A stretch of 32,000 nucleotides of DNA from Candidatus Scalindua sp. (GCA_031316235.1 JALDRA010000001.1:420001-452000), one strand, 5' to 3'. Numbered from the stretch's first letter, positions 3,571-32,000 are shown. Translations and numbers: made by a program. The notes: generated from the letters alone by a model not told the origin.

Positions 3571-3595
3571 GGTTTCTTATCTTCGTATTCATTGA

Positions 3596-3710
3596 TACAC
3601 TAAAACTGATTTGGTTTTCGGTTTTACCGGAAACCAAATCTTGGTTGCTGTTATACTCGCTCAATTTTATCTCGGATTTTATCCGAAATCCAGTATGAGA
3701 TGAGTATATA
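3596..3710 (+). repeat. Family-1 bipartite hairpin repeat, short form, copy 1 (X-then-Y orientation on + strand)
   Basis: Reads tacactaaaactgatttggttttcggttttaccggaaaccaaatcttggttgctgttatactcgctcaattttatctcggattttatccgaaatccagtatgagatgagtata. It aligns end-to-end with eight other copies. It lies 26 nt upstream of the mtaB start. Confidence 0.92.
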
Positions 3711-4670: not shown

Positions 4671-4806
4671 CCCACCGTCTTACTGCCTTACATAGATTCC
4701 AGACACATCCTGCCCTAACTTACTTTGCTTTCCTGCCTGCTGTCGGACGGATCGAGCAGGGAGATCTGATTCATCCGGCGGGCATTTACTCCTGCAAACC
4801 GGCTGA

Positions 4807-4918
4807 TATACTCATCTCATACTGGATTTCGGATAAAATCCGAGACAAAATTGAGCGAGTATACCTTCACCCAGATTTGATTTCCGGTAAAACCGAAAAC
4901 CAAATCGGTTTTAGTATA
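4807..4918 (-). repeat. Family-1 bipartite hairpin repeat, short form, copy 2 (inverted orientation)
   Basis: Reads tatactcatctcatactggatttcggataaaatccgagacaaaattgagcgagtataccttcacccagatttgatttccggtaaaaccgaaaaccaaatcggttttagtata, the reverse complement of the copy-1 architecture. Confidence 0.92.
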
Positions 4919-4945
4919 TCATTGCACTGAGAGAGGAGTTTAAAT

Positions 4946-6152: not shown

Positions 6153-6292
6153 TATACTAAAACCGATTTGGTTTTCGGTTTTAACGGAAACCAAATCTTG
6201 GTTGCTGGTATCCCCGGACAAAAAACGCCGAGGACTATACTCGCTCAATTTTGTCTCGGATTTTATCCGAAATCCAGTATGAGATGAGTATA
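6153..6292 (+). repeat. Family-1 bipartite hairpin repeat, long form (with 24-nt linker insert), copy 3
   Basis: Same X and Y modules as copy 1, plus ccccggacaaaaaacgccgaggac (6212-6235) between them. It lies 59 nt upstream of the radical SAM gene. The 6049..6282 ORF is a translation of this repeat. Confidence 0.92.
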
Positions 6293-6351
6293 TTTAAACC
6301 AACCTGTCTTTTTTTCTTTCAACAGTTCGACTTTTTCATGTTCGGTAAAAA

Positions 6352-9591: not shown

Positions 9592-9657
9592 GCTTCCGCC
9601 AATCCTGCTGGTTGTTCATGTGCAAAAAATCAAGCCCTCAGAGAAAGTCCGGGGAAA

Positions 9658-9739
9658 GTCCTCGGCGCCTGGTTGTCCGGGGATGCCATTAACCAGGCTT
9701 TGGTTTTTGAAAAATCTAACACCAGATCGGTTTTAGTAT
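9658..9739 (-). repeat. Family-1 repeat, degenerate fragment: linker insert plus X-module (copy 5)
   Basis: Reads gtcctcggcgcctggttgtccggggatgccattaaccaggctttggtttttgaaaaatctaacaccagatcggttttagtat. It matches the reverse complement of the long-form linker plus X hairpin. It is more diverged than the other copies. Confidence 0.75.
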
Positions 9740-17202: not shown

Positions 17203-17315
17203 TATACTCATCTCATAATGGTTTTCGGATAAAATCCAAGCTAAAACGAAGCGAATATAACTGCTACCAAGATTTGGTTTTTCAAAAAGCCTGAAACCAA
17301 ATCGGTTTTAGTATA
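17203..17315 (-). repeat. Family-1 bipartite hairpin repeat, short form, divergent copy 6
   Basis: Reads tatactcatctcataatggttttcggataaaatccaagctaaaacgaagcgaatataactgctaccaagatttggtttttcaaaaagcctgaaaccaaatcggttttagtata. The X hairpin keeps a 10-bp core with a remodelled apex. Confidence 0.88.
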
Positions 17316-17342
17316 ACGTACTCTGGAGGAACCGTAAACAGT

Positions 17343-17464
17343 GGTTGAACGCAAACTGCCCAGATACAAGGCGCGTAAGAATTTCGTTACCGGAGCGTAC
17401 TCAAGTACGTGAGGATCACGAATTTCTTACAGCAACGCAGCAGCTGGATAGTTTGCGTTCAACC
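17343..17464 (+). repeat. Family-2 122-bp long-hairpin element, copy 1
   Basis: Perfect 15-bp terminal inverted repeat ggttgaacgcaaact/agtttgcgttcaacc. Inner 13-bp stem gtaagaatttcgt/acgaatttcttac. Conserved apex accggagcgtactcaagtacgtgaggat. About 80% identical (97/122 by hand alignment) to 29440-29561. Confidence 0.88.
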
Positions 17465-18112
17465 AGAGGGTTTCCGTGCCACCACAATGACCGACTTCGT
17501 ATAATCAACCCCTATCATTCGATGGAAAGGTGCGATAAATATACGTTTGAGAAAAAATTTCACTCTTGAAGCGTTATAGGTGCGGTATATTTCCTGGACC
17601 TCAAGACCGGCACGCAGGCACAATCCGCCAAGCTCCTCATAGCTGTAGGGAGTGCGGTGTGTAGAATCCATGAGATAGCAGGATGGATTAAATATATTGG
17701 GTGTGCTCATAACCAGGCATGCACCGGACTGCAGAACCCTCGCACACTCCCTGATCAGATCCTCCCCCTCCTGAAGCGTAAGGTGTTCGATAACTTCCCA
17801 CGAAATAATAAGGTCGAAGTGCTCCTCAACTTCATGCAGGCTTCCGTAATCAGGTGAAAGAGCCGGATCTACATCCACCGTCTTGAATATAATATCCGCA
17901 TAAATTCTCTTCAAACGCCGGCCCCACTCCGAATTACCGGCTCCGACGTCTAATATCCGTGCACCATCTTTCATTAACGATCGAACAAGCTCAAGACGTT
18001 TCCGTAAAACGGGAACCTTCCAGATTGAATTATACCGCTTATGAATCTCGTCACGATTACGGAACACATTGGACCATGAAATTCTCGTATCGGTTTGTTG
18101 TGCATTTGACAT
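17459..18112 (-). CDS. Class I SAM-dependent methyltransferase
   Basis: 217 aa. Motif I ILDVGAGNSEWG and post-I/II motifs (DLIISWEVIEHL). The last two sense codons and the stop lie inside the family-2 element. Confidence 0.8.
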   Translation of the reverse strand: MSNAQQTDTRISWSNVFRNRDEIHKRYNSIWKVPVLRKRLELVRSLMKDGARILDVGAGNSEWGRRLKRIYADIIFKTVDVDPALSPDYGSLHEVEEHFDLIISWEVIEHLTLQEGEDLIRECARVLQSGACLVMSTPNIFNPSCYLMDSTHRTPYSYEELGGLCLRAGLEVQEIYRTYNASRVKFFLKRIFIAPFHRMIGVDYTKSVIVVARKPSG

Positions 18113-18164
18113 CTTCTTATTTAGTACTTAAAAAAACCGAGAGGTTAAATCGAAACTACCCTGA

Positions 18165-18276
18165 TATACAAAAACCGATCTGGTTTTCGGTTTTACCGGA
18201 AACCAGATCTTGGTGAAGGTATACTCGCTCAATTTTATCTCGGATTTTATCCGAAAACCATTGTAAGATGAGTACA
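18165..18276 (+). repeat. Family-1 bipartite hairpin repeat, short form, copy 7
   Basis: Reads tatacaaaaaccgatctggttttcggttttaccggaaaccagatcttggtgaaggtatactcgctcaattttatctcggattttatccgaaaaccattgtaagatgagtaca. It carries a compensatory T-A to C-G change in the X stem. It lies 53 nt upstream of the methyltransferase start. Confidence 0.9.
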
Positions 18277-18539
18277 TTACCGCAACTCGGCAGATGGGCA
18301 GTATTCTTTCCGGCACCATTTAAACGCATGGAAGGGTGAGGAGTCAAGCCTATTTTAACTCTCGGCCAAACCTTTACAAGGGATACTTATCGTTCCAGGG
18401 ATGTCATCCCCGCATGTTTTCTGGCAGGAATCGAGAGTAAGTTCACTGCGAAAGAAGAGCTAATCAGCCGTAACCCCTCTATAAAACAATGGTTAAGCAT
18501 GGCCATAATTCCTGAACTGAACACCTCGTTAATAATTAC

Positions 18540-18608: not shown

Positions 18609-18748
18609 TATACTGAAACCGCTTTGGTTTTCGATTTTACCGGAAACCAGATCTTGGTTAATGGTATCCCCGGACAAAAAGCGCCGAGGACCTTACTCGC
18701 TCAATTTTATCTCGGATTTTATCCGAAATCCAGTATGAGATGAGTATA
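18609..18748 (+). repeat. Family-1 bipartite hairpin repeat, long form, copy 8
   Basis: 140 bp, with 138/140 identity to copy 9 by direct comparison. Contains the 25-nt linker insert ccccggacaaaaagcgccgaggacc. Confidence 0.93.
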
Positions 18749-18795
18749 TTGAGAAAATAATGAGTGTAAATAATGAGTGTATAGAGCCGCGTTTT

Positions 18796-20047: not shown

Positions 20048-20187
20048 TATACTTAAACCGATTTGGTTTTCGATTTTACCGGAAACCAGATCTTGGTTAA
20101 TGGTATCCCCGGACAAAAAGCGCCGAGGACCTTACTCGCTCAATTTTATCTCGGATTTTATCCGAAATCCAGTATGAGATGAGTATA
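20048..20187 (+). repeat. Family-1 bipartite hairpin repeat, long form, copy 9
   Basis: 140 bp, differing from copy 8 at only 2 positions. A direct repeat of copy 8 located 1,439 bp downstream. The 20097..20357 minus-strand ORF is a translation of it. Confidence 0.93.
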
Positions 20188-20239
20188 TACGGGTTTATTG
20201 AGTGCAGGAGAAATACAATTAACGGGATGTAATACCTAT

Positions 20240-21259
20240 ATGAGAGTACTGTTCTTAGTCCAGGGAATGGAGGTAGCCGCAAGCAGGTATCGGGTCCTTC
20301 AATATCTGCCTTTTTTAAAGGAACATGGAGTACAGCCAACTGTCCTCCCCTTTCCAAAAGGGTTCTTCGAAAAGATACGGGTATTTAAGAGCATCCGCCA
20401 CTATGACATCCTGTTTATCCAGAGGAAAAGATTTTCCTTCCCCTGGCTCCAGTACATAAGGAGGAATGCAAAACAGATAGTCTTTGACTTTGATGACTCA
20501 ATAATGAACCGTAATTCGAAGGCAGACCGGCCTGAATCAAGGACACGGGAAAGAAAATTCGGGAATATGGTCGCCTCCTCAGACTACATAACGGCCGGCA
20601 ACGCGTTCCTGGTGGAGAAGACAAGACCCTACACGAAAAATGTTATGGCTATTCCTTCACCAATAGATATGTCCCGATATTCACAGAAAAACTATCCGGA
20701 AAAAAATCATACCGTTACATTGGGCTGGATAGGTGCGCATGGAAGCATACATTACATGAAAAAGATGAAGCCTCTCTTTGAAGCCCTGGGGAAAAAATAT
20801 GACAATGTGAAACTCAAGGTTGTGTGTGATGTTTTTTTCGACTGTGAAAATATGGTGGTTGAAAAGAAGCTCTGGAACGAACAGGATGAAGTCAGGGATA
20901 TCCAGAGTTTCGATATCGGATTAATGCCGCTGATCAATGATCCCTGGTCGCATGGCAAGTGCGGCCTGAAAATACTCCAGTGCCTGGCAGCAGGTGTTCC
21001 CGTGGTATGCAGTCCCTTTGGCATTAACAAGGAGATCGTTGAGGATGGGGTGCATGGCCTCTGGGCAGACACAGAAGAAGAGTGGTCAGAAAAGCTGGAG
21101 ATATTGATCAATGACAAGGCTCTGCGCGAAAGGATGGGAAGGGAAGGACGCAGAAAAGTTGCCAGGGACTACTCGCTTGAGACACACGCACCGAGGATGC
21201 TCAATCTCTTCAAAAGACTGGCAGATGATTTCAGAGATAGTGATACAATGCGCAATTGA
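20240..21259 (+). CDS. Glycosyltransferase (GT-B fold, group 1-like)
   Basis: MRVLFLVQGMEVAASRYRVLQYLPFL... and the C-terminal GKCGLKILQCLAAGVPVVCSPFGINKEIVEDGVHG are a GT-B nucleotide-sugar binding region. The start is set at ATG 20240. The track TTG at 20198 follows directly after the repeat. Confidence 0.8.
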   Translation: MRVLFLVQGMEVAASRYRVLQYLPFLKEHGVQPTVLPFPKGFFEKIRVFKSIRHYDILFIQRKRFSFPWLQYIRRNAKQIVFDFDDSIMNRNSKADRPESRTRERKFGNMVASSDYITAGNAFLVEKTRPYTKNVMAIPSPIDMSRYSQKNYPEKNHTVTLGWIGAHGSIHYMKKMKPLFEALGKKYDNVKLKVVCDVFFDCENMVVEKKLWNEQDEVRDIQSFDIGLMPLINDPWSHGKCGLKILQCLAAGVPVVCSPFGINKEIVEDGVHGLWADTEEEWSEKLEILINDKALRERMGREGRRKVARDYSLETHAPRMLNLFKRLADDFRDSDTMRN

Positions 21260-21343
21260 TTCTTTAACCATTATTCGGCACCAGAGGTACAGGTCAGAGA
21301 GTGAAATTTAGCAATTAAAAATGAACACAACTGGTCAAGACTT

Positions 21344-22852
21344 ATGAGAATTCTTTTTATCTATCCAAATATCAATGCTCAGGTCGGGTTTAATTTCGGG
21401 ATCGTCTTCATCTCTGCCCTCCTCAAAAAGCACGGACATGAGACCAAACTCTTAAACCTGAATGAGAAATTGTCAAAGTTACCGGATAATGAGGAAATTC
21501 AGAAAATAATCGAAGAGTACGACCCACAGCTGATTGGATTTTCTGTTGTCACCCCGCAATATCACTATGCCTTGAAAATAGCAAAACAGATCAAGAGCTT
21601 CTGTGATACCCCTATTGTCTGCGGAGGAATTCACGCTACCATGGTCCCCGAGGAGGTGGTCAGGGAAGATTGTATCGATTATGTCTGTGTCGGAGAAGGA
21701 GAGGAGACGGTTCTTGAATTAGCCAACAACCTTGAAAAGCAGATGGATACAAAACAGATTGCTAATTTATGGACAATGGATGGAGAAAAAATAATCTCAA
21801 ACAAGGTCAGGGCCCTGCCCGATCTTACAAAATTACCAAGAAAAGACTATGAGCTCTTTGATTTTCAACATATGATTGATGCTGAAAGCGGTTGGGTACG
21901 TATGATGACGTCAAGAGGCTGCCCTTTCAGATGTACCTACTGCTTCAATCACTCTATCGTAGAGCGGTATAAAAGCGAAACCGGCGCTGCAGCAAAGGAC
22001 CTTAACTATATAAGAAGGCACAGCGTTGACGACGTAATGGATGAAATCAACTATCTGCTCGCCAGCTATAAAAATATTACAACATTCATTTTCGATGATG
22101 ATATCTTTACTTCCAACAAGACATATCTGAAGGAATTCTGTAACAAGTATAAAAAATCGGTAAAGGTTCCTTTTGTTGCAAACGCACATATCAGGGCGTT
22201 TGATGACGAAAGGGCCAGATTACTCAAGGAAGCGGGATGTATCATTGTCAAGTTTGGCCTGGAAAGCGGAAGCGAACGGATCAGACGGGAGATACTCCAT
22301 CGCCCGATGACAAATGAAGAGATCACCCATGCCTTCGAATGCGCCCACAGGTATGATCTGCACTCTTCAGCATTTGTCATGTTTGGACTTCCGTATGAAA
22401 CCAGGGATGATATTTTCGAAACTATCAGGCTTCTCGGCAAAATAAAACCGGGCCGCTTCAGGTGGTCTATTTTCTACCCATTCCCCAGAACAACGGCCTA
22501 TGATATCAGCAAGAAAGGGAATTTCATAAATTTCAATAAGATGAAGACCCTTGATAACTTCACCGATGATACCTGTCTCGATTTCGGGGAGGAGCATAAT
22601 CTCTTTCTTGCAAGGCTGCAGCGAACCTTCCCATGGTATGTCAACGTACATTGCAATAATTCATCAAATGGAGTATTTTCTGCACTCACAGAGATGATAG
22701 AAAAAACCTCTTCCCGGGGATGGGAAGAGATGAAAGAATCCATCATCCCCTGTGATCGGGAGATTTCAAAACTGTTAAAACTGGCAAACGTGGAACACTA
22801 CGCTATTAAATATAACACTTTCACCGCAGTAAATTCGAAATGGGACAGATAA
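21344..22852 (+). CDS. B12-binding-domain radical SAM enzyme (class B-like)
   Basis: 502 aa. N-terminal Rossmann-like cobalamin-binding region (MRILFIYPNINAQ...LIGFSVVTPQY...PIVCGGIHAT). Radical-SAM box SRGCPFRCTYC. Overlaps the heptosyltransferase start by 13 nt. Confidence 0.85.
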   Translation: MRILFIYPNINAQVGFNFGIVFISALLKKHGHETKLLNLNEKLSKLPDNEEIQKIIEEYDPQLIGFSVVTPQYHYALKIAKQIKSFCDTPIVCGGIHATMVPEEVVREDCIDYVCVGEGEETVLELANNLEKQMDTKQIANLWTMDGEKIISNKVRALPDLTKLPRKDYELFDFQHMIDAESGWVRMMTSRGCPFRCTYCFNHSIVERYKSETGAAAKDLNYIRRHSVDDVMDEINYLLASYKNITTFIFDDDIFTSNKTYLKEFCNKYKKSVKVPFVANAHIRAFDDERARLLKEAGCIIVKFGLESGSERIRREILHRPMTNEEITHAFECAHRYDLHSSAFVMFGLPYETRDDIFETIRLLGKIKPGRFRWSIFYPFPRTTAYDISKKGNFINFNKMKTLDNFTDDTCLDFGEEHNLFLARLQRTFPWYVNVHCNNSSNGVFSALTEMIEKTSSRGWEEMKESIIPCDREISKLLKLANVEHYAIKYNTFTAVNSKWDR

Positions 22853-23961
22853 TCAAGGCAAAGAAAATCCTGGTCAGGGCGCCAAACTGGGTAGGTGATG
22901 TTGTCATGGCAACCCCCTCTTTCAGATGCATCCGGGAAAATTTTAAAGATTCACACATAACACTGCTGATAAAGAGAAATTTACAGGACATGATCAAGGG
23001 TTCTCAGTGGTTTGATGAATTGATAGCATTAGAACCCATTGAGAGAAGAAATACCCATGGTATTACGATACCAATCCTGAAATACCTTACCGGCATAACA
23101 AATTTCTTTTCACTGATATACCGGCTGAGACAGGAAAAATACGAGATTTGTTTTCTCTTCCCGAACTCCTTCAGCTCCGCCCTGTCAGCATGGTTAAGCG
23201 GGATTAAGATACGCGTCGGATACAAACGGGATGCACGCTCTTTTCTCTTAACGGACGGTTTGGAACGAAGGTATGAAAACGGAAGTTTCCGTCCATCCTA
23301 CATGGTAGATTATTATCTGCGCCTGTGCACGCACGTTGGGTGTAAAATAGACTCTAAAGAGCTGGAACTCTTCATCAGCAAGGCAAGTGAAGAGACGGCA
23401 AATCATCTATTCAGAAAATATCATATCGGTAAAAAACCTTTTGTCTTGATCAATCCGGGGGCATCCTATGGTTCTTCAAAGTGCTGGTATCCAAAGGAAT
23501 TTGCCAGGAGTGCGGATTTATTGAAGGAAAAGATGGATTGTGATATTGTACTTGTCTGCGGACCGGGTGAAACCAGGCTGACAGATGAAATTGAGCAGTT
23601 TTCTCAAAGAGGTGTAATCAATCTTTCCGAGGACCTGATCCCCCTTGATGTCCTTAAGGTCTTTGTAAAGAGATGTATGCTCCTTATCACCGTAGATTCC
23701 GGCCCGCGCCATTTTGCCGTAGCGCTGAGAAGGCCGGTTGTCGTATTGATGGGGCCGACAGACCCTCGATACACCCAGACAGAACATGAAATAGGCGACG
23801 TTATCAGAGCAGAGGCTGATTGTTCTCCATGCCATCTCAAGACCTGTCCGACAGATCACCGATGCATGGTACAGATATCGCCGGAAAAGGTTGTTCATAC
23901 CTGTATGAGCATATTAGAAAATCGACCCTCCGGGGCCAGGTGCAGTCAGGTGGTGTCCTGA
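22840..23961 (+). CDS. waaF: ADP-heptose:LPS heptosyltransferase (GT9), WaaF-like
   Basis: 373 aa. ILVRAPNWVGDVVMATPSFRCIRENF, NPGASYGSSKCWYPKEF and ITVDSGPRHFAVAL are GT9 heptosyltransferase motifs. Heptosyltransferase type II is an inference. Confidence 0.8.
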   Translation: MGQIIKAKKILVRAPNWVGDVVMATPSFRCIRENFKDSHITLLIKRNLQDMIKGSQWFDELIALEPIERRNTHGITIPILKYLTGITNFFSLIYRLRQEKYEICFLFPNSFSSALSAWLSGIKIRVGYKRDARSFLLTDGLERRYENGSFRPSYMVDYYLRLCTHVGCKIDSKELELFISKASEETANHLFRKYHIGKKPFVLINPGASYGSSKCWYPKEFARSADLLKEKMDCDIVLVCGPGETRLTDEIEQFSQRGVINLSEDLIPLDVLKVFVKRCMLLITVDSGPRHFAVALRRPVVVLMGPTDPRYTQTEHEIGDVIRAEADCSPCHLKTCPTDHRCMVQISPEKVVHTCMSILENRPSGARCSQVVS

Positions 23962-24035
23962 TTGAGGAAATTCTATTTTAAGGTTTCCGGCTTAAGTGTG
24001 ATGTGACATAGTATCAGTCAGTTATAAAGAGAGAG

Positions 24036-25055
24036 ATGAAAATGGTTCGAAAAAACATGGAGAAGGAAAAAGAGTCGTACAAGGCACTTATTGAAAATTT
24101 TCACAACGTCAATGTTGCCGTAATTGGTGACCTGGTTGCTGACGAATATGTCTACGGAAGACAATTTAAACTTTCGCGCGAGGCACCCGTAATTGTTGCA
24201 AAGTATGAAAATGAGGAAGTTCTCCCTGGAGGAGCCGGAAATATTATTAATAATATTGTCTCATTAGGAGCCACAGCCTTCCCGATTGGCCTGATTGGAA
24301 ACGACCAGAATGGAAAAAGTCTCTTAAACTATTTCACGAATCATGGAGTCGGCACTGAAGGAATTTTCACCTGCAGCTCCCGAATAACCATAACCAAGAC
24401 CCGCTTCCTGGTCGGAGATTCACACACCACAAAAAGACAGGTAGTACGCTTCGACAGGGAACCTGATACGACTATGGACAAAAGAACTGAACAGAGTGTC
24501 ATTGATTTTATTGATGGTATCGAGGATAAGGTGGACATCTGGATAATATCTGATTACAACTATGACATCATCACACCATCCATAATTCAGCGTATAAGGG
24601 AACTGGCAAAGAAAAAAACAGTAGTCGCAGATTCCCGGCATAGAATTAAAAAGTTTGAGGGAGTTACCATTATCACGCCGAACGAATCGGAAGCAGAAGA
24701 GGCAACAGGGAGGAAGATAGAGAATCAGGACCATTTATATGAGATAGGTGCACAGCTGCTGAGAGAGGTGAATACAAAGGCTGTACTCATTACCCAGGGC
24801 AATCAGGGAATGACGCTCTTCGAAGACGATGGAACAATTGAAAAGGTTCCCGTCTACGGGAAAAATGACGTTATTGACGTAACAGGTGCGGGAGATACCG
24901 TTGCAAGTGTACTTTCACTAAGCATCGCTTCCGGAGCCACTCTGGTACAAGCTGCTCGACTATCCAATTACGGTGCATCGGTTACCGTCATGAAGAATGG
25001 ACCTGCTACTGCCACCAAGTCAGAACTCCTTAAGGCTATAAATAACCATCCGTAA
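24036..25055 (+). CDS. rfaE1: D-glycero-beta-D-manno-heptose-7-phosphate kinase (RfaE domain I, PfkB family)
   Basis: 339 aa. VAVIGDLVADEYVYG..SREAPV...PGGAGN... and DVTGAGDTV are collinear with the N-terminal half of E. coli HldE. Confidence 0.85.
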   Translation: MKMVRKNMEKEKESYKALIENFHNVNVAVIGDLVADEYVYGRQFKLSREAPVIVAKYENEEVLPGGAGNIINNIVSLGATAFPIGLIGNDQNGKSLLNYFTNHGVGTEGIFTCSSRITITKTRFLVGDSHTTKRQVVRFDREPDTTMDKRTEQSVIDFIDGIEDKVDIWIISDYNYDIITPSIIQRIRELAKKKTVVADSRHRIKKFEGVTIITPNESEAEEATGRKIENQDHLYEIGAQLLREVNTKAVLITQGNQGMTLFEDDGTIEKVPVYGKNDVIDVTGAGDTVASVLSLSIASGATLVQAARLSNYGASVTVMKNGPATATKSELLKAINNHP

Positions 25056-25165
25056 CACGTTGAACAAAACTGCCTGCCTGCTGTGTTGCTGCACTAATAG
25101 ATTACTTTACAGATATAACAATTACTGCCTGAAAACTTTTATCTGGAGACAAATGAGGAAATAAC

Positions 25166-26491
25166 ATGTGGAAACAATTATTATCAAAAAAAAGGTATTA
25201 TACCACTACTAAGATAGAAGAAGATGATAATGAAGATGAGTATAGAAGCAGTTTTCACAAAGATTATGACAGACTGATTTTTTCAAACTCATTTAGAAGG
25301 TTATCAAGAAAAACTCAAGTCCATCCTCTATCGAAAAATGACCATGTACATAACAGACTTACCCATAGCTTAGAAGTGGCTAGTGTAGGAAGAAGTTTAG
25401 GGCTTAAAGCGGGAGAAATGTTAAAAAATAACCATGATAACAGTATTAATCCCTATGATGTTGCATACATCATACAAACAGCGTGTTTAGCCCATGACAT
25501 TGGTAATCCTCCATTCGGACATGCAGGAGAAGAAGTCATTAAAGAATGGTTTAAAAAAGATAAAGAACCGTTAAAAGAATTGACACAAGAGGAAAAAGAT
25601 GACTTTCAATACCTCGATGGAAATGCACAAAGTTTCAGGATAGTCAGCCAACTTGAAAATAATTTATTTGCTGGTGGGATGCGCCTTACATTTGCAACTT
25701 TAGGTTCACTTGTAAAATATCCATACTCTTCAAACAATTGCAAAAATACTGGAGAATCAAAATTTAACTACTTTCAAAGTGAAAAAGATTTCTTTGAGCT
25801 TTTATTCAGCGAACTTGGTTTAAAGCTACACAATGGCTTATACAAAAGACATCCATTATCTTATCTAATGGAAGCTGCAGATGATATCTGTTACGGATTA
25901 CTTGACCTTCAGGATGCATTTGAACTTCAAATAATATCGTTAGAAGACATGGAACCTATTTTTAATTTTCTTTGTGGCAAGAATAAAACAGAAGAAGTAT
26001 ATAATACAAGGTGTCACCATGGTATTCAGATTGTTTCAAAACTTGTGGCCATTTCAATTAACAGATTAGCTATACATACAATGGAAGTATTTGAAGGCAA
26101 TTTTGAACAAATTACTGGTGATAAACAGCCCGGACATTTAATCAATTTATTTAAGGACGAACAGCTAAAAAATGGAATTACAGAAGCTAAAAAATTGGGA
26201 ATTGATAAAATATTTAATGAAAAAAGGAAAATTGAAATAGAACTCGGTGCATACAATATTATTGAAACAATTCTTGATAATTTGATTCCTGCAACATTTG
26301 AATTATACCAAAAAGATGAAGAATCACTCTCTTTCAGAAACAAAAGAGCCTTGGAACTAATGGATAATAATAAACCAGAAAGAGGGGAAAGCCTATTTAG
26401 AATGTATCAAAGAGTAGTTGATTATCTTTTTGGAATGACAGATAATTATGCAAAATATATCGCAAATCAATTAAATGGCATGGGAGCATGA
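25166..26491 (+). CDS. dgt: dGTP triphosphohydrolase-like HD-domain protein (Dgt family)
   Basis: 441 aa. FHKDYDRLIFSNSFRRLSRKTQVHPL...HNRLTHSLEVASVGRSLG...LAHDIGNPPFGHAGE is the Dgt signature. Strong SD GAGGAAATAAC-ATG. The gene is visibly more AT-rich than its flanks. Confidence 0.88.
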   Translation: MWKQLLSKKRYYTTTKIEEDDNEDEYRSSFHKDYDRLIFSNSFRRLSRKTQVHPLSKNDHVHNRLTHSLEVASVGRSLGLKAGEMLKNNHDNSINPYDVAYIIQTACLAHDIGNPPFGHAGEEVIKEWFKKDKEPLKELTQEEKDDFQYLDGNAQSFRIVSQLENNLFAGGMRLTFATLGSLVKYPYSSNNCKNTGESKFNYFQSEKDFFELLFSELGLKLHNGLYKRHPLSYLMEAADDICYGLLDLQDAFELQIISLEDMEPIFNFLCGKNKTEEVYNTRCHHGIQIVSKLVAISINRLAIHTMEVFEGNFEQITGDKQPGHLINLFKDEQLKNGITEAKKLGIDKIFNEKRKIEIELGAYNIIETILDNLIPATFELYQKDEESLSFRNKRALELMDNNKPERGESLFRMYQRVVDYLFGMTDNYAKYIANQLNGMGA

Positions 26492-26699
26492 TTTAAAGGA
26501 CGGGTATGTTCTCGTAAACAAAAAAAAGGCGGAAGTATGCCTTCATTGTGGGGAGCGGTTGTATGCTGAGGAGATTGTGAGGTCATTTGAGGAAATCAGG
26601 AAAAAGCTTAAAAGCCAGGAACTCTCTGATTTTAAACCGCTTGTACAATCAGTTACTGTTTCGGAAAATTGGCCTAACAAAAGTATACAGCCAACATAA
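26475..26699 (+). pseudogene. 5'-truncated YgiT-type zinc-finger (MqsA-N-like antitoxin) gene remnant
   Basis: DLKDGYVLVNKKKAEVCLHCGERLYAEEIVRSFEEIRKKL matches only the C-terminal half of YgiT-type zinc-finger proteins (second CxxC pair). The first CxxC half is missing. The frame opens right after a TAA inside the 3' end of dgt. Confidence 0.55.
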
Positions 26700-26794
26700 A
26701 ACTGCGATGTTTTGTATCGTAAGTGGTTTTGGCTATCAAAGTTTAATTGTTCACAAATGATTTCTGTCTTATTCGGCTGATACTCAAACGTACA

Positions 26795-27064
26795 ATGAAC
26801 AAAGAATGCAAAGATATATACAATAGATTACATAAGATTTACAAAAAACATCTTAAAAGATATAGAAATCCTGATTCGAAACAGATTTGCTGTATGTGGT
26901 CTACTTTTAATCCACCAGACGAAATATATGAGTGTCAACAAATATATGACATTGAAGAAGAATTTGATATCGAACTCACACTAGATGATGCATTAGAAAT
27001 ATATGATATGATGCTTGAAGAAGCGTCTGAATCTATTTTGAAAATTATAAATAAAACAAAATAA
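26795..27064 (+). CDS. Hypothetical small acidic protein (89 aa)
   Basis: MNKECKDIYNRLHKIYKKHLKRY...IYDIEEEFDIELTLDDALEIYDMMLEEASESILKIINKTK, with a basic N-terminus and an acidic helical C-terminus. AT-rich like dgt. No family recognised. The track start at 26747 is TTG; ATG 26795 is preferred. Confidence 0.45.
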   Translation: MNKECKDIYNRLHKIYKKHLKRYRNPDSKQICCMWSTFNPPDEIYECQQIYDIEEEFDIELTLDDALEIYDMMLEEASESILKIINKTK

Positions 27065-27221
27065 AAACAAGCGGAATGTGTCAATAGGGATTACACACTT
27101 TTTTAAAAAATTTATTAAACGAATAGGAGACTAATTAGTGCGTGAACAAAAAACCCTGTGTATGAGCAAAAATAACTTTACCTTTTCGCCTCTCATTTTG
27201 AGGGGCTGATCAGAAGGGCTG

Positions 27222-27345
27222 TTGGCTCGTTACTTTCGCCTCACCGATTTACTACTTGAATTTGACCCTGATTCAGGCATACCTCATACAAGATCACTGA
27301 ATAACGGTTTATTTGAATTACGTCTAAAAGGAAAAGAGGGCATTG
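27222..27345 (+). pseudogene. Internal fragment of a Gp49-like/RelE-HigB-family toxin gene (DUF891-type)
   Basis: ..[37 protein letters not shown] matches the central ..LLEEFGPNLGMPYVKKL.DGLWELRIK... region of phage Gp49-like toxins. The N-terminus is cut by an in-frame TGA upstream. The C-terminal half is replaced by the kinase gene. Confidence 0.55.
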
Positions 27346-27354
27346 CACTCAAGT

Positions 27355-28338
27355 ATGAACGAAAATTTTCAAGAGATTACTCGGAGAGCGGTTGGAACCG
27401 ATATCTTCAAGATAGAAGATATCCAGACACTCTGGAGTGGGTACGGCAAGATCATGCGCTATGGCCTGAAGGACGGTAAGAGAAAAAGTGTTGTGATCAA
27501 ATATGTCAAGCTGCCAGAACAAAGTCTGCATCCACGTGGTTGGAATACCGACCTTTCTCATGAGCGTAAGATCCGGTCCTACCAGGTTGAAACAGCCTGG
27601 TACCGCTACTGGGCTGAACTCTGTGATGACAGCTGCCCCATCCCCCATTGCCTTCTCCTTGAATCATCTAAGGATGAGTTTCTTATGGTACTTGAGGATC
27701 TGGATGCCAGTGGTTTTCCGACCCGTAAAGATTCAGCTTCCACGATCGAGCTGCAGGTCTGCCTGAAATGGCTGGCGAACCTGCATGCCATCTTTATGGG
27801 CAAAGAGCCCGCAGGGCTTTGGCCGGTGGGTACTTATTGGCACCTGGATACCCGTCCCGATGAACTCGATGTGATGGAGGATCCTGCTCTCAAACAGGCT
27901 GCGACCCGGATTGACCAGAAACTTCGTGCGAGTCCTTATCAAACCTTCGTGCATGGTGATGCTAAGCTGGCTAACTTCTGTTTTTCTTCAGATGGGCAGC
28001 AGGTTGCGGCAGTGGATTTTCAATACGTCGGTGGTGGATGCGGCATGAAAGATGTGGCCTATTTTATTGGCAGCTGTCTCGATGAAAACGATTGCGAACG
28101 CTATGAAGAGGAATTATTGGATTGGTATTTTGCTCAGCTTAAAGAGGCGCTGAAAAAGTGTAAGTCACCTATCGACCCGGCAGCTATCGAGGAAGATTGG
28201 CGTGCCTTATTCCCGGTTGCCTGGGCCGATTTTCACCGTTTCATGAAAGGATGGAGTCCGGGCCACTGGAAGATTCATGGCTATAGTGAACGTATTACGC
28301 ATGATGTGGTCGCACAATTGAATTCAGAAAATCTCTAA
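27355..28338 (+). CDS. Protein-kinase-like phosphotransferase (APH/choline kinase/EcKL, DUF1679-like)
   Basis: About 327 aa. Brenner-type catalytic motif [13 protein letters not shown] followed by [10 protein letters not shown]. The overall layout matches the ecdysteroid-kinase-like/APH fold. G+C is visibly higher than in neighbouring genes. ATG 27355 is preferred over the track TTG at 27343. Confidence 0.75.
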
Positions 28339-28472
28339 AATAACAGTGGCGATTCTTTGTTTTTGACATCTACTTGCAACTTCCCAAAAAGATAGTAATG
28401 ATTAAATGCCTGAGAGTCCCCTTGATACTATTTTACAGTAGACTTATTCACCAAACTTGACTATATTTCATT

Positions 28473-28648
28473 GTCCGGTCAGGTTTTCGGGTGGGCGGCT
28501 ATTGTCATACCTGAAGGCTTTTTATCAGGTATCCAGAAGTACGTTCATCCTGGATTCCCGCTAAAAACCTGCCTGCCCGAACAGGTACAGGCAAGCGGGA
28601 ATGACAGCTTTGCGGCAATAAATAAAACAGCCAAAAACCTGACCGGAC
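28473..28648. repeat. Family-3 nested-palindrome element (MITE/REP-like, ~176 bp)
   Basis: Terminal inverted repeats gtccggtcaggttttcgg (28473-28490) / ccaaaaacctgaccggac (28631-28648) match at 17/18. Inner imperfect palindromes include gtcatacc..ggtatccag..ctggattcccgc..gcgggaatgac. The 61-aa ORF 28471..28656 (..VIPEGFLSGIQ..SGND..) is a translation of the palindrome. Confidence 0.8.
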
Positions 28649-28717
28649 GTTATTGAATTATACTCTAATTTGAGAAAAAAACAAAAACTGATAATTCAGC
28701 ACTTTTTAAGGAAAAAT

Positions 28718-29200
28718 ATGACTGCAGAAATTATACGGGACCATACAATACTGCAAACCACTATCGCGAATCTCAGAAAAACAGGAAAGAAGGTTATATT
28801 CGCCAACGGCTGTTTTGATATCCTCCATGTAGGCCATATCCGGTATTTACAGGAAGCAAAGACACTCGGTGACGTGCTTGTGGTTGCCGTGAATAGTGAT
28901 GCATCAATGAGAGCCATAAAGGGTGAAGGTCATCCATACATTCCGGAAGATGAAAGGCTTGAGATATTGGCGGCCCTGCGCTGCATCGATTATCTTACCC
29001 TTTTTTCTGAAAAAACGGTAGATAGCCTGCTCTTACAGTTAAAGCCTGATGTCCAGGCAAAGGGAACTGATTATACAAAAGAGACGGTTCCTGAAAGAGA
29101 AACGGTAATATCTTACGGTGGTGAAATTGCAATCACGGGAGATAAAAAAACCCACTCAAGTTCATGGATAAAGAGTGATTTGTCATACAGTAAAAAATAG
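28718..29200 (+). CDS. rfaE2: D-glycero-beta-D-manno-heptose-1-phosphate adenylyltransferase (RfaE domain II, cytidylyltransferase fold)
   Basis: VIFANGCFDILHVGHIRYLQEAKTLGDVLVVAVNSDASMRAIKG is nearly identical in pattern to the C-terminal domain of E. coli HldE. ATG 28718 (SD AAGGAAAAA) is preferred over the track TTG at 28670. Confidence 0.88.
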   Translation: MTAEIIRDHTILQTTIANLRKTGKKVIFANGCFDILHVGHIRYLQEAKTLGDVLVVAVNSDASMRAIKGEGHPYIPEDERLEILAALRCIDYLTLFSEKTVDSLLLQLKPDVQAKGTDYTKETVPERETVISYGGEIAITGDKKTHSSSWIKSDLSYSKK

Positions 29201-29439
29201 ATGATTTCCCAGACAGGAGAAGATGGATACAAATTGGCACGATACCTCCGTAAAAACCTGTCTCTCTCAAGTAAAAACAATAGAGGGGCCATTTCGGGCG
29301 GTAACAAAAATGGTATTATATAATATGAGAATTAGTAGAGCATTAAACAATGGGAAATGACATCCCCATAATCACCCTTCAAACGGGGACTTTAATAGAG
29401 TAAAGAATCCGGCAACAATTTAGAAAAAGATCAAATAGC

Positions 29440-29561
29440 GTTTGAACGAAAACTGACCGGATGCAAGGCGCGTTAAAATTCCGGAACCGGAGCGTAATCA
29501 GGTACGTGAGGATTACGGAATGTTAACAGCAACGCCGTAGATGGGTAGTTTTCGATCAAAC
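29440..29561 (+). repeat. Family-2 122-bp long-hairpin element, copy 2
   Basis: Terminal inverted repeat gtttgaacgaaaact/agttttcgatcaaac (14/15). Inner stem gttaaaattccg/cggaatgttaac. Same apex accggagcgtaatcaggtacgtgaggat. Same length and register as copy 1. Confidence 0.88.
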
Positions 29562-29562
29562 A

Positions 29563-30477
29563 CTAAATACCGCTTACAATACGATTGGCAAGATCAAAGG
29601 GAAGCGCGGCTTCAAGGATTTTCTTCCTCACCGCGTGTGTGTTGTACTCCGATTTTTCCAGAAATACTTTCTGTGTTTCAGTATCGTAGATCTTATAAGA
29701 GGCCATGGGGATACCGTCTCTCGGCTGGCCAACGGAGCCGGGATTTATGTAGTAACGCTGGACAGGGCTCAGGTGAACATCGAATGACTCCAGCCTCTCT
29801 GCCGATCCTCTTTCAGCCAGCATAAGTTTTTTATCAATTTGGTCTGTCGGGACAAATACTGAAGCAGAAACATCTCTTCCTTGCCTGGTATAGAGATACG
29901 CAGCTGGTTTGTGTGTATGGCCGGCAAACGTTATCTTTGCATAGAGTAAATCATACTGTAACATTTTCGAATTCATTACATATGCATAATCTTCAGGGCA
30001 ATCGGGTGTACTGTGAACCAATTCGATTCCTAATTTCCATATCCTTTTTCTCATAACGAGAGTTTTGAGAAAAGAAATATTATCATCCCGGATAACTTTC
30101 TTTGTCCAGTTTATGGATATACCTGCCGAAGATGCCATTACCGTATTAAGCTGGCCGATAACCCGTTGATCATGATTACCCGCTATTACGGTGGCCGTTT
30201 TTCCAAGAGCACAAATAGAGTCAATGCTATCTCTTTTATCAGCAGCATCAATGTCAATTGTATCGATAATCTCTCTTATTTCACTCTTCAGGAAAGAGTC
30301 TCCGTCTCTGAGAAATCTTACGATAGTGCAGCATTCATTGGGGTTTACACCGTAGCCAACGATATCACCCAGGATAAAAACTCTCTCTATCTTCTCATTA
30401 TTTCTGTGAAGTTCCAAAAAAACAGAGATCAGGGCTTCAATATTGCTGTGGATGTCTGAAATAACCAGGAATCTCAT
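29563..30477 (-). CDS. Calcineurin-like metallophosphoesterase
   Basis: 304 aa. MRFLVISDIHSN (DxH), ILGDIVGYG (GDxxxxG), AGNHD and GHTH motifs. Confidence 0.82.
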   Translation of the reverse strand: MRFLVISDIHSNIEALISVFLELHRNNEKIERVFILGDIVGYGVNPNECCTIVRFLRDGDSFLKSEIREIIDTIDIDAADKRDSIDSICALGKTATVIAGNHDQRVIGQLNTVMASSAGISINWTKKVIRDDNISFLKTLVMRKRIWKLGIELVHSTPDCPEDYAYVMNSKMLQYDLLYAKITFAGHTHKPAAYLYTRQGRDVSASVFVPTDQIDKKLMLAERGSAERLESFDVHLSPVQRYYINPGSVGQPRDGIPMASYKIYDTETQKVFLEKSEYNTHAVRKKILEAALPFDLANRIVSGI

Positions 30478-30833
30478 TTTTATACCTTTGCCTGTTGTTT
30501 TTTATCGTCGAAATGATGAGTAAGCTGTTTATGATACCAATGTGGCTATTAAAGCAAAACAGCTCAAAATTTCAACATTTTTCCTGACCAGAACGAATTG
30601 AAGAAGGATTTGAGCGTTACAAACTTCGGTTTTTTTCCGTCTCTCATGCCGCATAAATAGAAAGAAACAGATAAACCTCTATCTTGACTGAACAGGTATG
30701 CAATATTACCATATCTACATCTTTCCTTCATCGTATCTTAATGATTGCTTTGTTATATTAATGACAACTCATTACCAGCAGGCTTTTATTGTTTACCGGA
30801 ATCTTTTACCGGTGAACTTCCGTCAACACAGGC

Positions 30834-32000
30834 ATGTGCAAGCGAACAGTATACAATATTCTGGTTTTTTTATCTGTATTGATTTCAACAGGCTGTGCAT
30901 CGCACTATCCGCATGATCATGCATACGTATCTGATTCAATAAACGACCGGACCGGACACAATCTTGGATCAGACAATGAGATGGATGGTTTCAGACTGCC
31001 TGACGATGTTTCTCTCGCAGGCGGTCTGACAGAATATGAAGCGGTTGCAATCGCTTTATGGAATAATGCCAGATTCCAAGCAGACCTTACTGATCTCGGC
31101 TTTTCACGGGCAGATCTGATAGAAGCGGGTATGATCAGTAATCCTGAATTTACAACGCTTCTTTCGACGGGGCCGAAACAGATGGAAGCTTTCGTATTTT
31201 TGCCGCTTGTGTCGCTATGGCAGAGACCATATCAGGTATCTGCGGCAAAACTCAGCGCTGAACGCGTGGCTGAAAACCTGGTCCAGAATGGTCTCAACCT
31301 CGTTCGTGACGTTATCATGACCTACAGCGATCTTCTCTTTGCACAGAAGCGGGTAACTATTGCCGAAGAAGAAAAATATCTTGCTGAAGAAATAGCAGTT
31401 ATTGTACAGGCTCAGCTGCGGGCCGGTGACATAAGCGAGCTGGAGGAGACTACCTTTCAACTTGAAGCAGCTCAAAAACAGAGGGATCTGGTCGGTTACC
31501 GGCGTGATGCCGCTCTTTTAGGTGCGAAGTTGAAAACACTCATGGGTATGGAGCAGGAAGAAAATACCCTTACGCTAACGCCTGCTCAGATTGATGATAG
31601 CCGGACCCTCAATCTTGATGAACTCCTCACTTTAGCATATGCGGCACGGCCTGATTTACGTGCGGCAGAGATTGCTATTGAAGAAGCTGGCAAGCGTCTG
31701 GGATGGGAACGCTCAAAAATTTTCAATTTTACTGCCGTTGCGGATTATAATGAGAGGGGTACAAGCGGCCCGGAATTCGGGCCGGGCTTCAGGTTTGAAC
31801 TACCTGTCTTTAACCAGAATAATGGAAAGGTCGCACGTTCTCACGCGCAACTGGAGCTGGCAATAAGAGAGTACCTTGTTGTTAAACATGAAATAGCACT
31901 CAGGGTTCGTGAGGCCTATACAAATTATCGTGCTGCCCAGAAAGCATTGATGATACTGCGAACCAGGATATTGCGCATGGCGGCAACTGAAACACGCAAA
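30834..32000 (+). CDS. TolC-family outer-membrane efflux lipoprotein (OEP; CzcC/NodT-like), 3' end beyond the window
   Basis: Absent from the ORF track because it is open at the right edge. The frame opens after TGA at 30813. The first ATG, 30834, gives MCKRTVYNILVFLSVLISTGCAS (lipobox STGC). The frame continues ..LTEYEAVAIALWNNARFQADL..RAGDISELEE..AARPDLRAAEIAIEEAG.., typical OEP repeats. Confidence 0.85.
   Translation, partial: MCKRTVYNILVFLSVLISTGCASHYPHDHAYVSDSINDRTGHNLGSDNEMDGFRLPDDVSLAGGLTEYEAVAIALWNNARFQADLTDLGFSRADLIEAGMISNPEFTTLLSTGPKQMEAFVFLPLVSLWQRPYQVSAAKLSAERVAENLVQNGLNLVRDVIMTYSDLLFAQKRVTIAEEEKYLAEEIAVIVQAQLRAGDISELEETTFQLEAAQKQRDLVGYRRDAALLGAKLKTLMGMEQEENTLTLTPAQIDDSRTLNLDELLTLAYAARPDLRAAEIAIEEAGKRLGWERSKIFNFTAVADYNERGTSGPEFGPGFRFELPVFNQNNGKVARSHAQLELAIREYLVVKHEIALRVREAYTNYRAAQKALMILRTRILRMAATETRK

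Follow-up and report, generated by a model that had tools for sequence, protein, structure and literature searches.

Flexible genomic islets in the envelope gene clusters of marine bacteria, such as those for lipopolysaccharide (LPS) and O-antigen, and recombinase-free hotspots between core genes are a known concept. The DNA analysed here, a stretch of 32,000 nt from the genome of the anammox bacterium Candidatus Scalindua (Brocadiales), referred to below as the window, contains a locus that resembles them: the ADP-heptose genes rfaE1 and rfaE2 are separated by 3.66 kb. As in the described islets, the site is fixed between conserved genes, the content is variable, the composition is atypical, the cargo is enriched in genes of the toxin–antitoxin (TA) and defence type, and there is no dedicated integrase. 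In contrast to them, the present islet is very small (3.7–8.7 kb), interrupts a pair of metabolic genes that other genomes have fused or side by side, carries short palindromic repeats at its borders and inner boundaries, and owes much of its pattern to deletion. The pair itself is known as the E. coli-type fusion HldE (NF008454), whose two halves align with the window proteins, and as the split form RfaE1 plus RfaE2 (HldA/HldC). The genes are separate throughout the Scalindua lineage, adjacent in four genomes, and 3.7–8.7 kb apart in the split clade described below. We put at roughly three in four the probability that the interval is a recombinase-free flexible genomic islet, a recombination hotspot within the LPS-core cluster of one Scalindua clade. 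The locus is a new instance of an ordinary, well-documented kind of gene gain and loss hotspot and does not overturn current understanding.

The islet is located at the end of a gene cluster for LPS-core and polysaccharide synthesis, which includes glycosyltransferases, a B12-radical-SAM enzyme (21344–22852) and heptosyltransferase II (22840–23961). Its left conserved border is the intact rfaE1 (24057–25055, plus strand), encoding D-glycero-beta-D-manno-heptose-7-phosphate kinase of the PfkB family, and its right conserved border is the intact rfaE2 (28718–29200, plus strand), encoding D-glycero-beta-D-manno-heptose-1-phosphate adenylyltransferase. The RfaE1 protein matches PF00294 (2e-35) and aligns with the N-terminal half of HldE; its best match is TIGR02198, with 294.3 bits against a curated cut-off of 345 over model positions 2–314 of 315. 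RfaE2 matches PF01467 (3.7e-17) and aligns with the C-terminal half of HldE; its best match is TIGR02199, with 166.6 bits against a curated cut-off of 181.5 over positions 3–138 of 144. We accept both assignments despite the scores below cut-off, because the alignments are full-length and the genes keep their place after heptosyltransferase II in seven genomes. RfaE1 is 73–88% identical to Scalindua orthologues; the 88% match is to Ca. Scalindua sp. AMX11, followed by matches to metagenome-assembled genomes (MAGs) of Scalindua and Planctomycetota. RfaE2 is 71–90% identical to orthologues encoded directly 3' of rfaE1 in the outgroups. A longer, 339-aa version of the rfaE1 open reading frame (ORF) was set aside, as an exact look-up returned nothing and an independent assembly calls the start at the ATG at 24057. 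Since both border genes are intact, ADP-heptose synthesis is probably unaffected by the split.

Comparison with other Scalindua genomes provides the main evidence for this reading. The neighbourhoods of rfaE1 were taken from seven further genomes, with about 10 kb of flank per relative. The two genes are adjacent in four outgroups, with spacers of 17 bp (L007, rfaE1 83% identical to the window), 160 bp (L101/L102, 86%), 296 bp (L008, 76%) and 218 bp (L010, 73%). The split was found only in the window, in AMX11 (L003/L004) and in the ENA genome ERZ25072999 (L006), with gaps of 3.7, 7.5 and 8.7 kb. A midpoint-rooted neighbour-joining (NJ) tree of the concatenated radical-SAM, WaaF, RfaE1 and RfaE2 proteins, calculated without support values, gave the topology ((L008,L010),(L007,(L101,(window,(L003,L006))))), in which the split genomes group as one clade and all outgroups have the two genes side by side. 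The comparison thus demonstrates that the ancestral order was radical-SAM gene, heptosyltransferase II, rfaE1 and rfaE2, with the two rfaE genes adjacent. An earlier first-pass annotation, made from the window alone, had stated that the two genes are fused or adjacent in most genomes. It had named, as what would speak against an islet, a normally wide separation of rfaE1 and rfaE2 in this lineage or the same interval of uniform composition in all relatives. We found instead that the genes are normally adjacent, with outgroup spacers of 17–296 bp, that the split relatives carry different content and that the composition is mosaic. The site therefore shows the same core flanks, a differing content in relatives, an empty site in others and an atypical composition, as expected of a flexible islet.

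The content of the window interval is, in order, an F2 repeat stump, a dGTPase gene (dgt), a zinc-ribbon remnant, a gene for an 89-aa protein (orf89), a HigB/Gp49 toxin fragment, an EcKL/APH-fold kinase gene and an F3 element; all cargo genes are co-oriented with the operon. Blocks in common with AMX11 are rfaE1 up to 25091, part of the zinc-ribbon gene (26513–26580), orf89 (26708–27070), the kinase (27351–28411) and rfaE2 from 28652. The blocks private to the window are dgt (25092 to about 26500), the HigB fragment (27071–27350) and the spacer with F3 (28412–28651). The homology breakpoints to relatives accordingly fall at 25091/2, about 26500, 26707/8, 27070/1, 27350/1, 28411/2 and 28651/2, and the truncated genes coincide exactly with them. 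The F2 repeat and the kinase are common to all three split genomes. AMX11 and ERZ25072999 moreover have in common a 153/154-aa ORF, a thioredoxin-like gene and the kinase, and the first two are missing from the window. The remaining AMX11 cargo consists of an Rsm22-like methyltransferase gene, a zinc-ribbon gene, orf89 and a PIN-domain gene whose arrangement with a small ORF upstream is VapBC-like; that of ERZ25072999 consists of a WD40-ankyrin gene with a match to the PADLOC model PDC-M72A and several unknown ORFs.

The base composition follows this block structure. Against 22 other window ORFs of at least 100 aa (GC content 0.434 ± 0.024; GC at third codon positions, GC3, 0.450 ± 0.047), dgt (GC 0.321, GC3 0.231, z = −4.7) and orf89 (GC 0.270, z = −6.8) are clear outliers. 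Both blocks are also tetranucleotide outliers, and their AT-richness is unmatched by any stretch of equal length outside the interval. The kinase gene is a mild, marginal outlier (GC 0.490, z = +2.3), a value reached by 3.9% of the stretches outside. The first-pass annotation had described a compositionally mosaic islet of about 3.6 kb between rfaE1 and rfaE2, composed of an AT-rich dgt-like gene, a 5'-truncated YgiT zinc-finger remnant, an AT-rich 89-aa ORF, a Gp49-like fragment running into a GC-richer kinase-like gene and a nested-palindrome element. Each of these was recovered in our analysis, with dgt and orf89 as the compositional outliers. The shifts that it had placed by eye at 25.1, 26.5, 26.7, 27.2 and 28.4 kb coincide with homology breakpoints; as a step in composition, the one at 28.4 kb is weak (0.48 to 0.46).

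The block comparison also allows the events to be ordered. The F2 repeat after rfaE1 and the kinase are inherited within the split clade, and so, probably, is the zinc-ribbon/orf89 pair. Because these parts are inherited, the comparison argues for one ancestral split followed by turnover and not for five separate arrivals. The idea of repeated insertion and replacement at a single hotspot, which the first-pass annotation had put forward, is supported, with corrections: the kinase is not a fresh insert, and part of the mosaic arose by deletion. Since both sisters have the 153-aa and thioredoxin-like genes ahead of the kinase and the window does not, the window underwent a deletion. On its right side the deletion stops 4 bp short of the kinase start, and on its left side it runs into higB; a tblastx search of the window segment 27071–27350 found no remnant of either lost gene.

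Parsimony on the four-protein tree suggests that the spacer opened once, in the common ancestor of the window, AMX11 and ERZ25072999 genomes. This opening would have taken in an F2 repeat and a block ending in the thioredoxin-like gene and the EcKL kinase, after which, as the block-by-block comparison shows, each lineage altered the content by its own gains and losses. In the window lineage, the zinc-ribbon/orf89 pair was retained and a HigB-like toxin gene gained, and a deletion then took the 153-aa and thioredoxin-like genes together with the 3' half of higB. One dGTPase gene probably came from a low-GC donor, in an event that truncated the F2 repeat to its first 34 nt and cost the zinc-ribbon gene its 5' half. 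Separately, the F3 element, similar to a miniature inverted-repeat transposable element (MITE), inserted between the kinase and rfaE2. We infer that these changes took place by illegitimate or short-homology recombination and deletion in a tolerant spacer, with no integrase or transposase, and that the F1–F3 repeats, which litter the intergenic DNA of Scalindua, probably favour such changes. The cargo is probably transcribed by read-through, because its genes point in the same direction as the operon. A promoter scan was at chance level (15 found, 16.3 expected), and terminator-like matches were in excess, mostly on the minus strand inside F3; we use neither for any claim about transcription.

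Several points weigh against this history. The four-protein NJ tree is a simple one without support values, and independent splits in the three genomes are formally possible. The flank of about 10 kb per relative leaves room for a large rearrangement that joined a kinase–rfaE2 segment near rfaE1 in place of an insertion, and synteny downstream of rfaE2 differs between the window and its sisters. The kinase is about 87% identical in nucleotide sequence also to a Scalindua genome in which it is located elsewhere. For the genomes of the closest dgt donors (GCA_021777055 and GCA_021777075), what is established is a low GC content and the absence of Scalindua repeats. Finally, the palindromic repeats are associated with the hotspot and with block borders, and this association is correlative.

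The dGTPase gene is the most conspicuous window-specific block. It is intact (25166–26491, plus strand), AT-rich and lineage-specific, and encodes a dGTP triphosphohydrolase of the PRK01096 type. The protein scored 533.1 bits against the PRK01096 equivalog model NF002205 (cut-off 439), with residues 1–440 aligned to model positions 2–442 of 444. It contains the PF01966 HD domain, and the motifs HNRLTHSLEV and AHDIGNPPFGH are present in the translation. The closest solved relative is PDB 2PGS (4e-99). The gene thus resembles the described enzymes of this type (2PGS of Pseudomonas syringae; 3BG2 and 7TU0 of Leeuwenhoekiella) in its full-length match and HD metal-binding motifs, and differs from them in being an isolated, compositionally foreign gene in an anammox planctomycete. 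The enzyme is probably active.

The relatives of dgt lie outside Scalindua. The gene is absent from the AMX11 and ERZ25072999 intervals, and among its 120 best protein matches none bears a Scalindua or Planctomycetota name. The nearest named proteins, 69–74% identical, belong to Campylobacterales, Sulfurospirillaceae, Sulfurimonas, Sulfurovum, Methylococcaceae and Ca. Endonucleobacter. At the DNA level, the closest relatives are 87.6% (L012, GCA_021777055) and 83.6% (L013/L014) identical, on contigs with a GC of 0.33–0.35 and no Scalindua repeats. The gene was probably imported into Scalindua from a low-GC source, the likely direction of transfer being indicated by a composition that fits the genomes of its relatives and not that of Scalindua. 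In four genomes, the DNA homology extends from about 25 bp before the ATG to about 10 bp after the stop codon, with no common terminal structure or hairpins. The genomic contexts differ: the relative in L013 adjoins pta-ackA, and that in L014 lies 450 bp from an IS200-like Y1 transposase gene. We also observed that the closest relative (L012, 8001–9332) is apparently disrupted into ORFs of 392 and 43 aa. It lies within a polysaccharide-biosynthesis cluster, next to a HicB-type antitoxin gene, in a genome of about 35% GC, a setting that parallels the window.

The dGTPase could serve deoxynucleoside triphosphate (dNTP) housekeeping or phage defence by depletion of dGTP. This raises the question of whether the interval is a selected defence and TA islet, in which the dGTPase depletes dNTPs against phages and the TA remnants are due to the usual tendency of defence genes to gather at hotspots. 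We consider this unlikely, although it has several observations on its side. The protein matches the PADLOC dGTPase model over its full length (2.1e-71), the gene is intact and probably a recent import, and its 88%-identical relative in L012 likewise adjoins a HicB antitoxin in a polysaccharide cluster. TA-type genes also recur at the site, as the HigB and zinc-ribbon remnants in the window and the VapBC-like PIN-domain gene with its small upstream ORF in AMX11, and the cargo of ERZ25072999 includes the PDC-M72A/ankyrin match. However, the PADLOC dGTPase model comes without a curated cut-off and takes in the Dgt family at large, so that its match is a lead only. The protein passes the housekeeping-type NF002205 and falls below the curated anti-phage dGTPase cut-offs (184.6 against 400 for NF041026; 158 against 383 for NF003701), which places it outside the curated anti-phage clade. 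Furthermore, the close relative in L013 stands in a housekeeping setting beside pta-ackA, the TA genes of the window are all broken, and PADLOC found no other defence match in the window interval. The evidence for a defence role is therefore mixed. As this explanation concerns purpose and not origin, it is compatible with the flexible-islet reading.

The broken state of the TA genes is evident from both remnants. The first (26475–26699, plus strand; 74 aa) is a 5'-truncated zinc ribbon of the YgiT/MqsA type that overlaps the 3' end of dgt and reaches no family threshold in profile searches. Its segment 26513–26580 is homologous to a 59-aa ORF of AMX11 (L003, 14485–14664), which contains both CxxC motifs (CPIC and CLHC) and matches MqsA_antitoxin weakly (16.7 bits against a cut-off of 30). 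The window ORF has only the second motif, CLHC, of the two that characterise such zinc ribbons. The two genes are complementary wrecks: that of AMX11 has both CxxC motifs and has lost its C-terminus, and that of the window has the C-terminus and has lost the first CxxC to the dgt block. The second remnant is a HigB/Gp49-like toxin pseudogene fragment of 43 codons, cut at both ends (27222–27350, plus strand), with no counterpart in L003 or L006. It matches PF05973 at 24.0 bits (cut-off 23.9) over profile positions 12–52 of 90 and phrog_2523 at 2.9e-6. An in-frame TGA (27204–27206) lies upstream, and the ATG of the kinase starts 4 bp past the fragment end, the kinase gene standing in place of the 3' half of higB. 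Thus, neither a complete toxin domain nor an intact ORF is left, and no adjacent HigA-type or other antitoxin ORF was found. Sequence homology to HigB/Gp49 and to YgiT/MqsA is recognisable in the window; unlike the known genes, however, both are fragments without a partner gene, and we conclude that the window contains no functional TA module.

Palindromic repeats of three families mark the borders of the islet and of several of its blocks, which the first-pass annotation had not recognised as repeat families; they are named F1, F2 and F3 here. F2 is represented at the left breakpoint of window-specific DNA by a stump (25060–25093, plus strand), the first 34 nt of the repeat, broken after GTTGCTG; the homology between the window and L003 ends at 25091, that is, at rfaE1 + 36 bp. 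The stump aligns with the F2 copies that immediately follow the rfaE1 stop codon in L003 (right end truncated) and L006 (full), and with the two full copies of the window (17336–17465 and 29433–29562), which are about 130 bp long and form perfect hairpins of −65 and −51 kcal/mol. The copy at 29433–29562, downstream of rfaE2 at the end of synteny with the sister genomes, is 79% identical to the other window copy and 83–87% identical to the post-rfaE1 copies of L003 and L006.

F3 (28473–28648) is a MITE-like nested palindrome of 176 bp between the kinase and rfaE2 and is specific to the window at this site; L003 has an F1 repeat in the same spacer. Its terminal inverted repeats are 21 nt long, and its predicted fold has a minimum free energy of −82.2 kcal/mol (z = −7.7 against shuffles). 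An exact-pattern scan of GTDB species representatives, a restrictive search, found the F3 termini GTCCGGTCAGGTTTT with a different palindromic interior in two elements on a 2.8-kb contig (L020) of Ca. Scalindua sp. SI037_bin72. No clear target-site duplication could be read at the element ends. Rfam gave no relevant match at gathering scores in the whole window or at E ≤ 1 in 24.9–29.7 kb, and F3 is therefore not a known RNA. A 61-aa ORF at 28471–28656 coincides with the palindrome and has no family match, and we took it to be spurious.

In L003 and L006, F1 copies separate the cargo blocks of the interval, and the rfaE1–rfaE2 spacers of the outgroups are free of all three families. At least eight F1 copies are dispersed between genes in the 32 kb of the window (3593–3709, 4806–4921, 6153–6293, 9655–9739, 17203–17315, 18162–18277, 18609–18749 and 20048–20188). 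They are 113–141 bp long and 72–99% identical, have the ends TATACT...AGTATA and internal hairpins, and include a 28-bp indel variant. The family looks like a MITE or a repetitive extragenic palindromic (REP) element and has no Rfam match; more copies are present in all close Scalindua loci (L003, L006 and L007). F1 (113–141 bp), F2 (about 130 bp) and F3 (176 bp) are, like MITEs and REP elements or bacterial interspersed mosaic elements (BIMEs), short, non-coding, self-complementary, multi-copy and intergenic, with conserved termini. They differ from MITEs in lacking a visible target-site duplication and an identified parent transposase, and the F3 copies are alike only at their termini. Other Scalindua (L015–L018, 4614–7228) carry one or two copies of a 320-aa Y1_Tnp + DnaA_C protein, similar to those of IS200 and the REP-associated tyrosine transposases (RAYTs), a few kilobases from an EcKL kinase gene; this protein is a candidate mobiliser of the palindromic families. 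A more ambitious interpretation would make the spacer a repeat-seeded, recombinase-free site of gene capture, at which F1, F2 and F3, possibly mobilised by a Y1/RAYT protein like those of other Scalindua, would time and again open a way in for single foreign genes, with the recently imported dGTPase acting in phage defence by nucleotide depletion and orf89 as an ACP-fold-like family that travels in islets. We regard this combination as distinctly unlikely.

A discrete mobile element might alternatively have brought in the cargo and then decayed, as an integrative islet, an integron cassette or an IS200/IS605-type element with a passenger gene. The Y1 transposase gene near the dgt relative in L014, the duplicated Y1_Tnp + DnaA_C genes of other Scalindua genomes and the conserved termini of the palindromes (F2 and F3) at the borders would fit such an origin. 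However, the machinery and the scars of a classical integrase-mediated island, namely an integrase or recombinase, a tRNA or att target and flanking direct repeats, are missing at the interval. Pfam and NCBIfam profile searches found no recombinase domain in the interval ORFs, and there is no recombinase or transposase ORF between the 24- and 30-kb positions of the window and no tRNA or tmRNA gene in the whole 32 kb. Direct repeats bracketing the interval or the dgt block were not convincing, being short and at chance level. The first-pass annotation had likewise seen no integrase and no clear att repeats. In addition, the homology of dgt to its relatives stops close to both ends of the coding sequence with no common terminal hairpins, and the blocks are of different phyletic ages. 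A decayed element is thus an improbable source of the islet.

The kinase gene (27355–28338, plus strand) is intact and is a conserved neighbour of rfaE2 within the split clade. Its product matches PF02958 (72.1 bits against a cut-off of 22; 6.5e-20) and PF01636 (38 bits against 23.2; 2.1e-9) and has no sequence relative in PDB. From 27351, the nucleotide sequence is 87.7% identical to L003 and 87.4% to L006. The protein is 78–88% identical in many Scalindua contigs and 70–77% identical in MAGs of Desulfobulbaceae, Thermodesulfobacteriota and Gammaproteobacteria. Such conservation of an EcKL/DUF1679 kinase between phyla is unusual, and even among Scalindua genomes the gene has different surroundings. 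In L015, from another abundant species of the genus, the neighbours of an 88%-identical kinase gene are those for chorismate mutase and a VWA protein, and LPS genes are absent from its vicinity. We found no repeats flanking the L015 kinase, and its homology to the window is limited to the coding sequence. The kinase is therefore not tied to rfaE2 in general, and there is no basis for assigning it a heptose-pathway role.

These data bear on the idea that the ADP-heptose/LPS-core pathway has gained functions from the interval genes, the kinase phosphorylating heptose or a core sugar, for instance, and that the split reflects operon growth. The pairing of an APH-fold kinase with a nucleotidyltransferase is a known motif in sugar activation. 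Every interval gene is co-oriented with the operon, the kinase is kept beside rfaE2 in all three split genomes, and two outgroups (L007 and L008) have a different kinase, of the Kdo/WaaP type, directly 3' of rfaE2. However, the occurrence of the 88%-identical kinase elsewhere in Scalindua away from LPS genes and of 70–77%-identical homologues in Desulfobulbaceae and Gammaproteobacteria speaks against a dedicated role. Moreover, nothing connects dgt, orf89 or the TA remnants with LPS, and the cargo differs between the sisters. We consider this explanation very improbable.

That a wrong join at repeats during assembly or binning produced a chimeric islet can practically be dismissed: dispersed repeats that could mislead assemblers are abundant in the region and in composition the dgt block resembles DNA from another organism, but the Logan assembly of SRR28338161 is 100% identical over 20162–32000 with every junction included, a contig of the second run SRR28338162 is 100% identical over 22135–25200 across the rfaE1/dgt junction, the dgt protein is recorded on a 4.15-Mb contig, and the junctions lie inside truncated genes and not at full-length repeats.

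The orf89 block (26708–27070, plus strand) contains a gene (26795–27064) for an acidic, helical 89-aa protein. The block is common to AMX11 (L003, 14650–15011) at 92.6% nucleotide identity, above the approximately 85% of the core genes. Our analysis revealed that orf89 represents a real, widespread family of small proteins (about 90 aa): an exhaustive HMMER search gave 93 representative clusters at E ≤ 1e-3, and 186 metagenome loci were confirmed. The conserved motif is DSxQMCxMWS..DPPD...DIE..F.I.I.EDDA.E.YDM.L.EA, and AlphaFold2 predicts a confident helical bundle (pLDDT 94.9). The family is unannotated: nothing was found in Pfam, NCBIfam, PADLOC or PHROG. Matches of the model to acyl carrier protein (ACP)-like folds were non-significant (best E = 0.68, TM 0.55–0.62), and we did not assign it to the ACP family. 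We also dropped the notion of the zinc ribbon and orf89 as a conserved two-gene module, as 80 metagenome loci showed no recurrent neighbour, the largest neighbour cluster comprising 5 of about 140 ORFs. The AMX11 interval contains, besides the full copy, two degenerate partial copies of orf89 (L003, 11871–11932 and 12112–12186).

The locus is a clean and dated case of the separation of two conserved, paired metabolic genes, from an anammox lineage that is uncultivated; the site is empty in four relatives and filled in three genomes. It also illustrates that single genes pass between Scalindua and low-GC marine bacteria with no mobile-element machinery in sight. Its value lies mainly in the annotation of anammox genomes and in the dense palindromic repeat families. 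The kinase adjacent to rfaE2 should not be read as a member of the ADP-heptose pathway, the small ORFs of the interval are pseudogene fragments with the exception of orf89, and a PADLOC dGTPase match alone does not amount to a defence system.

Variable DNA is present also around the islet. Beyond rfaE2 and the F2 repeat, the window has a metallophosphoesterase gene and a resistance-nodulation-division (RND) efflux operon, and L003 and L006 have a 111-aa gene and an ACT-domain gene resembling the small subunit of acetolactate synthase. Because these downstream genes differ beyond F2, rfaE2 has variable DNA on both sides. A DDE_3 transposase gene of an insertion sequence (L003, 19677–20708) lies just downstream of the AMX11 rfaE2, a further sign of an insertion-tolerant neighbourhood. 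The DNA from heptosyltransferase II to rfaE1 is another small spot of variation: the sisters hold an extra 86–87-aa gene of the 23S_rRNA_IVP (four-helix-bundle) family there (L003, 9438–9984; L004, 9591–9854; L006, 9700–9960), which is missing from the window (23925–24039).

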